A DNA stretch of 64,000 bases from Pseudomonadota bacterium (lineage in GTDB: Bacteria; Pseudomonadota; Alphaproteobacteria; Paracaedibacterales; CAIOTO01), in NCBI GenBank assembly GCA_040389165.1, contig JAZKAK010000003.1:12931-76930 (forward strand), written 5' to 3'. The position numbers were made by a program, and so were the translations under genes. Below the pieces are notes generated by a model. The model was given only the letters and a program-made list of their open reading frames with translations, was not told where the DNA came from and searched no databases. Below are positions 6,204 through 12,990 of the stretch, piece after piece. Each line of letters begins with the position of its first letter. Position 1 is the first letter of the stretch.

Positions 6204-7328
6204 ATGAACAAAGACCCCCTAACCAACATTCCGACAGACATACAACACAGTAAACCACGTACGTATGTTCTATCTGGTGGTGGCACCGGCGGGCATCTAT
6301 TCCCAGCACTTAGTCTTGCCGATGAAATTGAAAGTGCCGGCCATCAAGCGCACCTCGTCACAGACAGCCGAGGCGTCGTTTTCTTTAAACACAACCAACG
6401 AAACCCATCATTTGTATGTACGATTATTCGTAATCATTGGCTTTTTGGACGGCTTATTTACCCTTTCAGCTTAGGGTTTCAAATTATCAAATGCTTCTTT
6501 TGGCTTCGCAAAAAACGCCCTGCGGTTGTTGTTGGCTTTGGCGGCTATCCATCCTTCCCTTGTGTTTTTGCTGCACAATGGCTTGGCATACCAACAATTT
6601 TACACGAGGGGAACGCCTTTTTAGGAAAGGCAAATCGTTTGCTGCTTAAAAAAGCAAAGAAAGTTGCCTTATCATTTCCTCCTCTTAAAAATACACCCGT
6701 TGATCCACGCTTTCATGTGACAGGAAATCCTGTACGCAGCGGCGTATGTGCACTCATGAATGATGTTTATAAGGCACCAACATCTGATGAACGTTTTAAC
6801 ATTCTTATTGTGGGCGGCAGCCAGGGTGCAAAGATTTTCTCAACCCTGCTCCCTGAAACCATTCACAAACTTCCTCTTGAAATGCAAAAACGTCTTGTGA
6901 TTACACAACAATGCAGACCCGCACAAATGGAAGATACTGAACTAGCCTACAAAGGTACGCGTTGCAAGATTCGTTTAAAAACGTTTCTATCCCCTATTGA
7001 AACGTATTACAAAGATGCCCATCTTGTTATTGGAAGGTCGGGTGCATCAACAGTAGCAGAAGTCGCCATCGCAGGGAAACCTATGCTTTTTGTACCTTTC
7101 CAAGGATCAGCAGAGGGCGATCAGGCGCAAAATGCAGCACATTTAGTTGCAGCAAATGCGGCTTGGGTTATGCGTGAAACAAGCATATCATCGGATAAGT
7201 TGGCACTATTCTTAAAGGGTCAACTGGAAAATTCAGATGAGCTTGCACAAAAAGCGCTTGCCATTCGTCAATTCGCACATCCAGAGGCCGCAAAAAATGT
7301 GTGGAATATCGTTGCAGAGATCGGCTGA
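6204..7328 (+). CDS. murG: UDP-N-acetylglucosamine--N-acetylmuramyl-(pentapeptide) pyrophosphoryl-undecaprenol GlcNAc transferase
   Basis: 374 aa with the G-loop SGGGTGGHLFPALSLADE and a GT28 C-terminal domain (GRSGASTVAE). Confidence 0.95.
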   Translation: MNKDPLTNIPTDIQHSKPRTYVLSGGGTGGHLFPALSLADEIESAGHQAHLVTDSRGVVFFKHNQRNPSFVCTIIRNHWLFGRLIYPFSLGFQIIKCFFWLRKKRPAVVVGFGGYPSFPCVFAAQWLGIPTILHEGNAFLGKANRLLLKKAKKVALSFPPLKNTPVDPRFHVTGNPVRSGVCALMNDVYKAPTSDERFNILIVGGSQGAKIFSTLLPETIHKLPLEMQKRLVITQQCRPAQMEDTELAYKGTRCKIRLKTFLSPIETYYKDAHLVIGRSGASTVAEVAIAGKPMLFVPFQGSAEGDQAQNAAHLVAANAAWVMRETSISSDKLALFLKGQLENSDELAQKALAIRQFAHPEAAKNVWNIVAEIG

Positions 7329-7415
7329 TATTTGCTGTCGATAGTGAATATTCTGCTTTGTCATTCCCTGATTTATTAATGTGTCATCCTCGGACTCGAT
7401 CCGAATGTATCTACA
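7295..7415 (+). repeat. Left 121-bp direct repeat bracketing the ankyrin islet (murG 3' end plus the left arm of RE-C)
   Basis: AAATGTGTGGAATATCGTTGCAGAGATCGGCTGATATTTGCT... is repeated at 12870..12990 with about 90 percent identity by eye. Confidence 0.85.
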
Positions 7416-7502
7416 CATCTTAAAGTAATTTAAATAAAATTACGTCGATCCAGTGCTTGCCGTGTCTGAAATATGGATATCCGATCGAAAAACAAAAGTC
7501 TT

Positions 7503-7587
7503 CGTCATGGTGAGCCCATAGGGCGTGGCCATCCAGTTGGATTTATTCCTAGATTACCACGTCGCCTAACGGCTCCTCGTAATGACG
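7503..7587. repeat. RE-E palindromic repeat (CGTCATGG(C/T)GAGCC...GGCCATCCAG...TCGT(G/A)ATGACG)
   Basis: Related copies or fragments occur at 22070..22157, about 30790-30860, about 33960-34025, about 42415-42500, about 48515-48545, about 60750-60830 and 19940-19985. Confidence 0.65.
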
Positions 7588-7706
7588 ACCGCGGGGTATC
7601 CACTTGTTTTGAAAAAGAGACAAGTAATAATTAACAAGAATAACTTAATTAATAGTTAATGTTTTTATGATAATATCAGATAATTAATAATAAGAAAGAA
7701 TATACA

Positions 7707-10521: not shown

Positions 10522-10646
10522 ATACCGTTTTCACTAACTTTCAATTAGTGCAGTCCTCTGCAATATCTCTGTTGCTTATGTACAAGTGTACACTGCGCAC
10601 CTCGAATTTTGATGTCTTACTACTCAAAACTTTTTGAAAACGGTAT
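10522..10646 (-). repeat. RE-A copy
   Basis: Reverse complement of 550..674 with a few substitutions. Confidence 0.85.
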
Positions 10647-10658
10647 TAGAACCATATT

Positions 10659-12635
10659 TTACCCTTCTTCTTTTTCTAAAACAGGCGATCGAGGCGTTCC
10701 CTTTGACACATCCTGATTGGCGGCAGGCCATAAACGAATCGGAATAATATCAACGGTGTCACCTGTCGCTTTTGCTATTTGAAACATATATTCAACCGTT
10801 TTATTATTACCGACAACATCTTTAAAACGCCGTGCATTTTCATCATCGCACGCGGCTATAACGGGCCTTGCTGATGTAATAACGTCATCTTCGCTCCATG
10901 TATCTGGCTGTCCGAGACCCTCCACTATGGCGCCCAGCTGCGTTCCATTAACAACATTCCAGACATAACTATTTTGATCGATATATTGATCTATATTATC
11001 AAAAATATTTGTAAGCAATACTTTTAACGAAACAGGCGGAGGCGGTAGAATTTTCTTAAAATCCTCTGGCACATCCTTATTTAAGCTAGCAGCGTCAGAT
11101 CTCTTGCATATATCCAAAGCAGAAACCCAATTATTAAACGGCGTCAATGGCACTGGATTCAAATAAAGGCGAATCATATTAACAAGCGAAGTATCATTTT
11201 TTATGCGAAGAACATTAAGCGCTTCACGCACGTTGTCACGACTTACTCTTAAATCAGGAGGAAGATTAGGCGCTAAAAATAACTCAAGTCTGCCGTCATC
11301 TGCTGACAGTGAATGCGCAAACTGATTATCTATAAATTCGCGTGATATCGGCATATCTTCAGCACGTAATCGGTCTGCACACTCATTGACACCCAGCACA
11401 TATGTCCCTAAGAGTAACGTAAATTTGAGGGAATCAAGCTCCGTTTTGACTTCTTGACGTCCCTCCTTTTTAATAAACAACGGAAGTTCAACTAATAGTT
11501 TATCAAGAATAGACAGTCGATTTTTAATTCCTGGCCTAAAACATATACTGTACAGCGCTTCCATTGCGCCCTTTAATGTAGGGCGCAGACCTACGTATTC
11601 TTCGTAGCCAAGAATTTTAAATGTATTGTGGTCGTGTAGCAACCAACTAACGGTATCAACGTGCCCATTACCTGTCGCCAAGACTAATGCTTTATCCATT
11701 GTTTCTGTACCAAAGGCAGTGGCAAATTTATAATTATAGCAATATTTCATAATCAGAGGCTTTGTTAGCATTCTAGACACCACAATGCATGCATTCATAA
11801 TGAAGAAATCACGTATAAAATGTGTTAAAGCTGTGTGGTGATAACCGCTTGCTTGCCCTGGAATCGCTGAATATCCATTTGCGTAGTAATACAAATAAGC
11901 CGCACAGAGATATGGCGGAACAATCAACGACATTTGCCGTAGACTTGGCTTAGTAAGCCAATCAAAATCTGTTGCTGCGCGTCTCCAAGATACCTCGAAT
12001 AATAGCTCTATAAAAGGATGAAATCCATTTTTTGCTGCAACAAGAATGGCGTCATTAATTGCTTTTAACGAAGGGGTGGGGACATTATATCGATATAGAA
12101 ATAAGGATTCAGCATGAAAAGAACTGCCATACGCGGCAGCGGTAACTAACAACTGATCAACCGTGTCAGAATCAGGTTTGAATGCTACATTTTCAGTACG
12201 CATAAGTTTAAAAAAATTTACATTAGCGCCTAATGCGATCGCAGCCCTTAAGCCAAGGGCAACACCTTCTTTTGATGCCATGAGTGTTTTAGCATGTCGC
12301 GTGATAACCGTGTTTGCTTCTTTAAAATTATTTGCATCACATGCATTTTGGATTAATTGAGTAATATCGTTTAATGTCGGCTCTGGTGGCTCTGCTAAAA
12401 GTGCCGGTGTTTGCAAAAGTGTTTCTAATGGGAGAGAGGTATTTGCGGGCGCAACGACTTCTTCAGCGTCTCTCTCAGGAAGAGGTGTATGAGCGAGTGC
12501 GTCAATTTGCGCAGCGTCAACACTAGCGGCACCATTTACTGACGCAACAGAAAAATTCCGAGCAGGCTGACTGTCATCATCCATCGCGTATACAGCAAAC
12601 GGCATCACAGATAAAAGCAATAGTTTTTTCAACAT
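10659..12635 (-). CDS. Degenerate ankyrin-like repeat protein, secreted candidate effector
   Basis: ORF runs to 12755. The likely start is ATG 12635, giving signal peptide MLKKLLLLSVMPFAVYA. ANK-like stretches include ALVLATGNGHVDTVSWLLHDHN and AILVAAKNGFHPFIELL. Confidence 0.65.
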   Translation of the reverse strand: MLKKLLLLSVMPFAVYAMDDDSQPARNFSVASVNGAASVDAAQIDALAHTPLPERDAEEVVAPANTSLPLETLLQTPALLAEPPEPTLNDITQLIQNACDANNFKEANTVITRHAKTLMASKEGVALGLRAAIALGANVNFFKLMRTENVAFKPDSDTVDQLLVTAAAYGSSFHAESLFLYRYNVPTPSLKAINDAILVAAKNGFHPFIELLFEVSWRRAATDFDWLTKPSLRQMSLIVPPYLCAAYLYYYANGYSAIPGQASGYHHTALTHFIRDFFIMNACIVVSRMLTKPLIMKYCYNYKFATAFGTETMDKALVLATGNGHVDTVSWLLHDHNTFKILGYEEYVGLRPTLKGAMEALYSICFRPGIKNRLSILDKLLVELPLFIKKEGRQEVKTELDSLKFTLLLGTYVLGVNECADRLRAEDMPISREFIDNQFAHSLSADDGRLELFLAPNLPPDLRVSRDNVREALNVLRIKNDTSLVNMIRLYLNPVPLTPFNNWVSALDICKRSDAASLNKDVPEDFKKILPPPPVSLKVLLTNIFDNIDQYIDQNSYVWNVVNGTQLGAIVEGLGQPDTWSEDDVITSARPVIAACDDENARRFKDVVGNNKTVEYMFQIAKATGDTVDIIPIRLWPAANQDVSKGTPRSPVLEKEEG

Positions 12636-12869
12636 ATATACAATTTCATTAAAAATTAACAATAAATAATTATTATTTTCGTTTCTGTGCACAATAAAAA
12701 AACGAATTCCTCCTCGTCGCATGAAGCACATAAATAAAAAGAACAAGAATAACAAAAGAATTTATGAATTTCACAATACTAACTATTATTTTGATTATTC
12801 TTGTGTTAATATGATCGCTTAAGAAGGTTTGACATTTACGCCATTTACGTAACCCTGGAATGCCCCACG

Positions 12870-12990
12870 AAATGTGTGGAATATCGTTGCAGAGATCGGC
12901 TGATATTTGCTATCGATAGTGAAGATTCTGCTTTGTCATTCCCTGATTTATTAATGTGTCATCTTCGGGCTCTACCCGAAGATCTCTACA
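12870..12990 (+). repeat. Right 121-bp direct repeat (orphan copy of the last 34 bp of murG including the stop, plus RE-C)
   Basis: Same sequence as 7295..7415. It lies 140 bp upstream of murC. Confidence 0.85.

Follow-up and report, generated by a model that had tools for sequence, protein, structure and literature searches.

A composite islet enclosed by copies of the murG 3' end between murG and murC in an uncultured alphaproteobacterial lineage

The stretch of DNA analysed here (64 kb, referred to as the window; coordinates are those of its forward strand, with position 1 as the first letter) stems from an uncultured alphaproteobacterial lineage that is probably intracellular. Between murG and murC, which together with murB are adjacent in the dcw (division and cell wall) gene order, it carries an islet of two convergent genes, enclosed by two direct copies of a segment that contains the 3' end of murG. 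The main features of the locus are the following:

6143..6172, + strand: predicted murG promoter (TTGTAA, 18 nt, extended -10 TGCTATAAT)
6204..7328, + strand: murG, intact, 374 aa, with the Pfam domains Glyco_transf_28 and Glyco_tran_28_C
7295..7415, + strand: left (L) repeat copy, comprising the terminal 34 nt of murG, stop codon included, and 87 nt downstream
7707..10103, + strand: 798-aa gene with ankyrin repeats, a putative signal peptide, coiled-coil stretches and a C-terminal domain
10659..12635, - strand: 658-aa gene, ATG at 12635 (same start in the NCBI call), with a putative signal peptide
12775..12869, no strand assigned: conserved 95-nt block, which abuts the murC-side repeat copy wherever it is found
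12870..12990, + strand: right (R) repeat copy, an orphan murG 3' end with the native post-stop spacer; hairpin at about 12955-12993
12991..13129, + strand: spacer before murC, with an RE-C element (13056-13095) and a ribosome-binding site
13130-14626, + strand: murC, identified by Pfam, collinear with all relatives
14623-15615, + strand: murB, identified by Pfam, with a 4-nt overlap with murC, collinear with all relatives

A preliminary description of the window had reported 121-bp direct repeats that duplicate the murG end, and realignment bears this out. In an ungapped count, 7295-7415 and 12870-12990 are identical at 112 of 121 positions (92.6%, 9 mismatches), each copy comprising the terminal 34 nt of murG including the TGA stop codon (7295-7328) and 87 nt of downstream sequence. 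The first 99 nt agree at 96 positions (ungapped), and blastn detected no third copy of these 99 nt in the window. A repeat scan of the window returned the pair as one two-copy family (7287-7415 and 12862-12990, 129 nt, 91%), and, with a 3-nt gap, the similarity between the copies continues weakly to about 7432 and 13005. The left edge of the repeat is sharp: no identity is found directly left of 7295 and its counterpart, and the 200 nt left of each copy show no detectable relation in local alignments against shuffles (z = 0.1). The orphan fragment in front of murC is on alignment a genuine copy of the murG end, as had been proposed; a longer, decayed murG copy extending to the left was ruled out by the same type of comparison (z = 0.1-0.7). 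The murG gene itself is unimpaired, its product aligning through the last residue with 22 homologues.

The terminal ~35 nt of each repeat copy consist of an RE-C-type hairpin (at about 7380-7418 in the L copy). It belongs to a dispersed family whose core, GTCATCCTCGGA, has 22 matches in the window versus 0.15 expected. The stability of the hairpin folds in the repeat tails is not significant (z = -0.8 to -1.5). A pair of inverted repeats at the islet ends (7634-7663 and 12775-12804, 80%) was rejected, since it is AT-rich and unsupported by alignment and thus probably due to chance.

Between the repeat copies lie the two convergent genes and three kinds of small repeat element. The 798-aa protein contains ankyrin repeats (Pfam Ank_2, E = 1.4e-8, above the cut-off), and approximately residues 160-285 match structures of designed ankyrin-repeat proteins (DARPins) in the PDB with E = 2e-21. 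A word-index search with the entire protein matched only itself. An exhaustive phmmer search with residues 395-670 returned 54 remote relatives, the best of them 46% identical over 302 residues, and several, perhaps many, of these also carry N-terminal ankyrin repeats. The C-terminal domain family, with 54 cluster representatives, corresponds to residues ~395-680 (8889-9746 in the window) and displays an invariant W..ES..AY..SC.KG..ER..G.R motif. The domain is modelled by AlphaFold2 (AF2) as an all-alpha bundle with a predicted local distance difference test score (pLDDT) of 80. It has no Pfam family, no relative by sequence in the PDB and no fold match in the PDB; with its invariant Cys, Glu and Arg residues it is possibly an enzyme.

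For the 658-aa protein, described as all-alpha, the AF2 model is unusable (pLDDT 48). Its homologues share 64-66% identity. No Pfam family scores above threshold, and the ankyrin match is confined to a single, sub-threshold repeat (Ank_2, E = 0.019, 15.9 bits versus a cut-off of 27.3); in its homologues the match likewise stays under the cut-off, with 22.9 bits in P0004. Since these matches lie below threshold, the two convergent ankyrin genes with signal peptides of the preliminary description were an overstatement: their convergent arrangement and the ankyrin nature of the 798-aa protein stand, the ankyrin assignment of the 658-aa protein does not, and the 798-aa protein is the sole clear ankyrin protein of the two. 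No paralogues were found in the window at E = 1e-3, and in exact-protein look-ups the window's own MurG and ankyrin protein are not on record.

Ankyrin-repeat and other eukaryote-like secreted proteins are known from Legionella, Coxiella, Rickettsia, Orientia and Wolbachia. The islet resembles these cases in that the 798-aa protein fuses ankyrin repeats to an uncharacterised C-terminal domain, and in that its genes are AT-rich, fast-evolving, lineage-specific and scattered among core genes. Both islet proteins possess N-termini with basic, hydrophobic and A-x-A segments in the hydropathy profile, and from this profile and the A-x-A-like sites Sec signal peptides are plausible. In this respect they would differ from effectors with type IV or type I secretion signals. 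Any role of the islet proteins as effectors in a host cell would be putative.

Relatives were collected by scanning species-representative genomes and metagenomes and by looking up homologues of MurG and of the 658-aa protein (loci and proteins are given as L001, P0009 and the like). In a neighbour-joining tree of MurG the genus-level ingroup receives 96% bootstrap support, and the window and L010/L011 are sisters with 100%. Comparison of gene order, as suggested in the preliminary description, revealed intact junctions, with murG adjacent to murC across a spacer of 110-305 bp, in L002, L010/L011, L093/L094, L098, the P0009 contig and the outgroups L099 and L100. Intact junctions in the sister, in other relatives and in both outgroups show that the islet is an insertion, and the earlier proposal of an insertion between once-adjacent genes is thereby upheld.

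Several other relatives carry inserts at the same junction. L092 has a homologue of the 658-aa gene in the same place and orientation, together with its own orphan murG end. In L095/P0011 (93% identical to L092) a 658-aa-type gene directly follows murG; the R side of L095 is not sequenced, and a Joint Genome Institute (JGI) contig of this lineage displays the order murG, 720-aa gene, murC. L001 has the orphan copy and the block upstream of it, here with an unrelated 829-aa gene as cargo. The N-terminal ~200 residues of this L001 cargo (2745-5234, - strand) weakly resemble a 377-aa protein encoded elsewhere in the window (22198-23331, - strand; 25% identity, E = 7e-9), which hints at a family of modular secreted proteins. 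L096 (7333-11471) and L097 possess a different, 4.1-kb insert between murG and murC, which lacks an orphan murG copy and encodes a 67-aa open reading frame (ORF), a GerE/LuxR regulator, a methyltransferase, an MFS transporter and an 89-aa ORF; seven extra bases precede the old murG stop in both. In L089 a homologue of the 658-aa gene is found at another locus, with neither the 95-nt block nor an orphan.

The 798-aa ankyrin gene is absent from the site in every sampled relative, including L092, L095 and L001. Together with ~3.2 kb of small repeats (7433-10658) it is specific to the window among the sampled relatives, and L092 and L095 carry the 658-aa gene without it. The islet is composite, with an older right-hand module (658-aa gene, block and orphan end) and a newer left-hand module (ankyrin gene and repeats). 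The preliminary description had considered that its genes might be ancestral at this position; this is partly true of the 658-aa gene and does not apply to the ankyrin gene. Since several different inserts occupy the junction among relatives, the murG-murC spacer is a recurrent insertion slot of the clade, with at least three different cargos. The islet-free relatives and outgroups, with murG, murC and murB contiguous, agree with the usual dcw order; the clade departs from it in the recurrent use of this spacer and in that the cluster is already fragmented. The ftsZ gene of the window (50796-52346, - strand) is 37 kb away from murG, murC and murB and has the opposite orientation. A literature search for insertions at murG/murC or a murC promoter found nothing relevant.

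The right-hand boundary of the islet is shared with other lineages. Window positions 12775-14631 align continuously with L001 (5408-7261), and 10668-12923 align continuously with L092 (287-2563 in reverse-complement coordinates). In the window, L092 and L001, homology to murG begins within ~5 nt of one point, immediately after the 95-nt block. This block is 80-87% identical to its counterparts in L001 and L092 versus 45% at neutral sites; it is kept in L001 despite the different cargo and is missing upstream of the L089 copy of the 658-aa gene. The block is therefore linked to the R copy and not to the cargo. Its invariant motif TTCTTGTGTTAATATG occurs only in L001 and L092 among 100 loci, and neither block nor motif gave matches to viral contigs. 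The motif could possibly serve as an extended -10 element facing murC (12804-12812), as a TTAACA -35 element facing the cargo gene, or as both. With TGTTAATAT facing murC, the block would provide a second candidate promoter beside the R-copy element described below.

The length of the repeat varies between lineages, with 42 nt in L001, 121 nt in the window and ~150-190 nt, including indels, in L092. The L and R copies of these three genomes, six in all, have a 17-mer, TGGAATATCGTTGCAGA, in common without any mismatch; the L copy of L095 deviates from it. Because junction, block and orphan copy are common to L092 and L001, the duplication was not made in this genome, contrary to what the preliminary description had taken as the simplest reading. 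Its further suggestion, that recombination occurred at the RE-C element, is left without support as well: the hairpin lies inside the duplicated segment, and an RE-C-type hairpin is also present in the murC-side copy of L001.

The two repeat copies seem to evolve in concert. The murG end of the outgroups reads GTA TGG AAG ATA GTT GCA GAG ATC ATC TAA. All three R copies (window, L092 and L001), as well as the L copies of the same genomes, have TGG AAT ATC instead, whereas the nearest relatives of each retain AAG ATA: L010 (sister of the window), L095 (sister of L092) and L093 (L001 clade). At the protein level, P0009 of the L001 clade (protein sequence only) and the outgroups P0016 to P0021 carry K at the respective MurG position, with the exception of P0020, which has Q. 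Because the same double change is found in three genomes while their closest relatives differ, it is best explained by gene conversion from the R copy into murG, replacing K by N in MurG, apparently on three separate occasions. Conversion also accounts for the high identity of the L and R copies in the window. In the window and in L092 the two copies have common lineage-specific tails, and the R copy of L092 keeps the outgroup-like GTA and ATC ATC. L002 is free of the islet and nevertheless has AAT ATC, and a derived TGCTG state is common to the L copies of the window, L092 and L095.

Short direct repeats in general permit deletion and gene conversion, as in the conversion of tufA/tufB in Salmonella. 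The murG locus differs in that small repeat elements specific to a lineage seem to be part of the converted tracts.

Conservation of the R copy points to a function in front of murC. R copies are 82-92% identical between lineages versus 45% at neutral sites (P = 1e-7 to 4e-12). After the murG stop, the motif TATTTGCTATCGATA is present in L100, L098, L093 (as a TCTTTGC variant), L002 and all R copies, where it includes the 10-bp palindrome CTATCGATAG (12910-12919 in the window). In all L copies the motif is degraded (TGTCGA, TGGCGA and CAGCGC; in the window CTGTCGATAG). The R copy comprises TTGCAG (12887-12892), 18 nt ending in TATTTGC and then TATCGA, with a TG two bases upstream. This layout parallels that of the predicted murG promoter, in which TTGTAA is followed by 18 nt ending in TATTTGC and by TATAAT; there, CTTG...TTGCTATAATT is invariant in six related genomes and matches the sigma-70 consensus. 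The exact 10-mer TATTTGCTAT occurs in the 64 kb only at the murG promoter and at the R-copy element. We infer that the R-copy motif is a cis-element needed in front of murC; the simplest candidate is a promoter that spans the murG stop codon. The duplication would then span exactly what murG and murC both need.

Whether the islet was inherited or acquired was assessed from silent sites, d4 denoting the corrected distance at 4-fold degenerate sites. Between the window and L092, d4 of the 658-aa gene amounts to 0.45 versus 0.99 for murC and 1.14 for murB; for murG, of which L092 holds the end only, the comparison with its sister L095 yields 0.94. The L089 homologue gives 0.57 versus 1.22 for tyrS and 1.04 for def of the same pair, and core genes of the window and its islet-free sister L010 differ by 0.65-0.70. 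The low d4 of the 658-aa gene is uniform along its length, and base composition at saturation is the same. Silent-site divergence of the islet is thus about half that of the flanking core genes. In the same way, the non-coding sequence 12924-13055 shares 77% identity with L001 (Jukes-Cantor distance 0.28) and the spacer leading to murC (12991-13129) is ~77% identical to the L001 spacer; neither is alignable with its counterpart in the sister L011. On the MurG tree, lineages with and without the islet are interspersed, requiring ~3-4 gains or 4-5 losses. The reduced silent-site divergence in combination with the patchy distribution favours lateral spread by recombination.

Inter-lineage recombination in the region is also visible in murC, which is a mosaic (Fisher P = 6e-11). 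In its 3' 40% (nt ~900-1497, window 14030-14626) the sister L010 is more distant than L001 and L092 are (breakpoint test, P = 6e-11); the mosaic would have arisen in either the window or L010.

Taken together, the locus is best explained by a composite islet whose shared unit has spread laterally, whose repeat copies undergo conversion, whose R copy is kept by selection and whose cargo turns over; for this reading as a whole we estimate a probability of about 0.55. At its origin, one duplicative insertion put a leftward-facing secreted-protein gene behind murG, copying ~34 nt of the murG end and at least 100 nt of native spacer. Due to this duplication murG kept its reading frame, in the L copy, and murC its native upstream sequence, in the R copy. 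The resulting unit of cargo gene, 95-nt block and R copy recurs at the same junction in other lineages of the genus-level clade and is missing from further ones, including the sister of the window. The favoured course is that lateral transfer and recombination brought the unit into the window lineage and into others once these had split, with repeat-mediated deletion as a possible contribution to the patchiness. As no recombinase is encoded, homologous recombination is the simplest route, for which the repeat itself (Campbell-type integration), flanking mur sequence or the dispersed small repeats might serve as substrates. Conversion between the L and R copies would then, with good confidence, have imported AAT ATC into the murG end, changing MurG from ...NVWKIVAE to ...NVWNIVAE. 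Selection may keep the R copy for the cis-element that all relatives have in common between the murG stop and murC, most likely the murC promoter. Finally, the cargo turns over: the window has the ankyrin gene and four small repeat elements, seen in no sampled relative here, and L001 has exchanged the coding sequence for an unrelated gene.

Several observations weigh against this reading. The mur genes beside the islet show no donor-like tract: murC nt 1-600 clearly resemble the sister L010, and murG, whose 3' third is generally more conserved, is ambiguous. The islet contains no mobility or recombinase gene, and movement is deduced from comparisons only. For each genome pair the silent-site argument draws on a single cargo gene and few core genes, and d4 could be biased downward where a fast-evolving gene is compared at its conserved codons. 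The MurG tree is built from one gene and several of its internal nodes are weak, and on it a vertical history with 4-5 repeat-mediated losses is about equally parsimonious. As to the proposed promoter, the -10 hexamer TATCGA lacks the usual final T, a scan for consensus promoters was at chance level (14 sites versus 15.4 expected), as was that for terminators, and the palindromic motif could instead bind a regulator. Given that donor tracts are lacking in the adjoining mur genes, the crossover must lie within or very near the repeats, which fits Campbell-type integration via the repeat or an exchange whose end falls into one of the dispersed small repeats.

A purely vertical history, in which one insertion in the genus-level ancestor was followed by four or five independent losses between the repeats and by no lateral movement, is possible, if unlikely. 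It would agree with a junction and block common to lineages across the ingroup, with the outgroup-like bases in the L092 R copy, which resembles an old fossil, and with the derived TGCTG state in the L copies of the window, L092 and L095. The direct repeats offer a ready deletion route, and the AAT ATC of the islet-free L002 could be the scar of a former R copy. However, compared with silent sites of the adjacent core genes, divergence is about two- to four-fold lower in the 658-aa gene and in the non-coding right flank, and it is also lower than that between the window and its islet-free sister. Moreover, the islet-free spacers are unlike the sequence downstream of the R copy, which a simple deletion between L and R would leave, and many parallel losses are needed.

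More doubtful is a decayed site-specific element, resembling a cis-mobilizable element (CIME), with attL and attR at the murG 3' end, a lost integrase and movement in trans, the block representing a recombinase-binding arm. In Streptococcus salivarius, fda, rpsI and rpmG have been described to harbour integrative elements at their 3' ends, and integrase-less CIMEs with cargo only, derived from 3'-end elements, have been described as well (PMC7563491). The murG locus resembles such integrative and conjugative or integrative and mobilizable elements (ICEs and IMEs) and CIMEs in its classic 3'-end architecture, as expected of a genomic island at a gene 3' end: att-like direct repeats with the murG end surround a cargo-only segment, and the murG ORF is restored and intact. 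Empty sites are found in relatives (L002, L011, L093, L098, L099 and L100), the distribution is patchy, the cargo is variable, the block accompanies the R copy irrespective of the cargo, and silent-site divergence is low. The identity of the 17-mer in the six L and R copies would also suit a recombination core. On the other hand, no integrase, excisionase, relaxase or other signature gene, and no cognate ICE or IME, was found in the islet or in ~12 related loci at the site, a sample limited to contigs. Within the islet, ORF listing and Pfam revealed only two long ORFs (ankyrin or no Pfam match) and no tyrosine or serine recombinase or DDE transposase; the non-coding parts are short and consist of small repeats. 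The repeats, from 42 to ~190 nt, are long and variable, those of the window and L092 extending far beyond a usual core. Their copies evolve in concert, the L095 L copy differs from the 17-mer, and the block has no match in viral contigs. Unlike in known ICEs and IMEs, a conserved cis-element in front of the following essential gene lies partly within the outer repeat copy; the phylum is a different one, and murG is a target not reported before. Lacking both a recombinase and a cognate element, the locus falls outside this class; its repeats, present while signature genes are absent, would be putative recombinase substrates.

Other classes of mobile DNA fit less well. Insertion of a transposon or insertion sequence was rejected, as the duplication measures 121 nt instead of 2-15 bp and neither supported terminal inverted repeats nor a transposase are present. 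The entire window contains no tRNA or tmRNA gene, so that the islet is not a tRNA-linked island. Campbell-type integration, the single homologous crossover of circular DNA, leaves direct repeats on both sides of the insert. The islet shares these homologous flanking repeats, which allow precise loss and concerted evolution; at this locus both the circle and the origin of the murG segment on it are hypothetical. The locus is most aptly classed as an accessory islet at a hotspot, with a scar of homologous recombination on its flanks. That the murG 3' end is a dedicated landing pad for secreted-protein cassettes, with repeats and block as sites for a recombinase encoded elsewhere, a fixed module that supplies the murC promoter and an orphan end that feeds back on MurG by conversion, is a speculation to which we give little credence.

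A recent de novo insertion of both islet genes as a unit at RE-C, with the 121-nt duplication made in this genome, is very improbable. The 97% identity of L and R over 99 nt, which conversion explains, the RE-C-type hairpin at the end of both copies and the restriction of the ankyrin gene to the window would suit it, yet orphan copy, exact left boundary and adjoining block are common to L092 and L001, and L092 and L095 have the 658-aa gene without the ankyrin gene. A chimeric join at the ~100-nt repeat, conceivable in a metagenome-assembled genome as repeats of this size can mislead short-read assemblers, is extremely unlikely, because the order murG, cargo, orphan, murC recurs in at least three assemblies obtained independently from further samples and lineages (among them L001, L092 and the P0011 JGI contig) and the two copies differ at 9 positions.

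The non-coding parts of the islet harbour the following small repeat elements:

7490..7600 (approximate bounds), no strand assigned: small palindromic repeat element with arms CGTCATGGTGAGCC...GGCTCCTCGTAATGACG
10159..10323, no strand assigned: 165-bp palindromic repeat element, four occurrences in 64 kb
10345..10490, no strand assigned: RE-C element followed by a 20-nt tandem array of 5-6 units, from the repeat scan
10520..10648, no strand assigned: 127-bp repeat element with inverted ends and dispersed copies

Partial copies of the first element are found at 30817-30850 and 48512-48543. The 165-bp element recurs at 33704-33869 and 52714-52877 (both 100%) and at 18133-18294 (99.4%), and four copies of such high identity suggest a very recent spread. 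The copies of the 127-bp element lie at 46832-46957 and 550-676 (98%) and at 50668-50785 (82%). Tandem arrays with a period of 20-23 nt, built of the RE-C half-site GTCATCCTCGGA, are present at 10371-10490, 43778-43901 and 48405-48461. An Rfam search over 5-16 kb of the window gave nothing below E = 0.5. Small palindromic repeat elements are known from reduced genomes, for instance miniature inverted-repeat transposable elements (MITEs) and Rickettsia palindromic elements. The window resembles these in that short, hairpin-forming dispersed repeats fill its intergenic spaces, including the ends of both repeat copies.

Variation is also found on either side of the islet. The window MurB comprises 330 aa versus 305-306 aa in relatives (murB start, 14623-14710), owing to an extra N-terminal T/A/N-rich stretch encoded by 12/24-nt tandem repeats (14638-14709). 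Behind murB lies a gene for an 805-aa secreted-looking coiled-coil protein (15680-18097, - strand) with 42-nt tandem repeats (15774-15916); since relatives have ddl and ftsQ or other genes after murB, this represents a second variable slot. The thrS-murG spacer (5299-6203) is variable as well, with a 125-aa signal-peptide ORF (5752-6129) in the window, an uncharacterised 324-aa gene in L011 (738-2469) and two other genes each in L093 and L098. The close relative L098 encodes a TLC-type ATP/ADP translocase (1617-3113). Such translocases are a hallmark of obligate intracellular bacteria, and its presence supports an intracellular lifestyle of the clade.

Islands flanked by copies of gene 3' ends and accessory genes between core genes are already well known, and the promoter-preserving duplication and the conversion into murG would add neat, testable details and no new principle. 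The locus illustrates that an essential, normally co-transcribed gene pair tolerates an insertion, the persisting insert having duplicated a gene end and a conserved element upstream of the next gene. The replacement of K by N in MurG would be a small, clear example of an orphan gene fragment that rewrites the end of an essential gene by conversion. Attention is also drawn to a still uncharacterised family of C-terminal domains that is associated with ankyrin repeats. For the annotation of uncultured intracellular bacteria, the murG-murC spacer may be regarded as a variable slot of fast-evolving, putatively secreted proteins.

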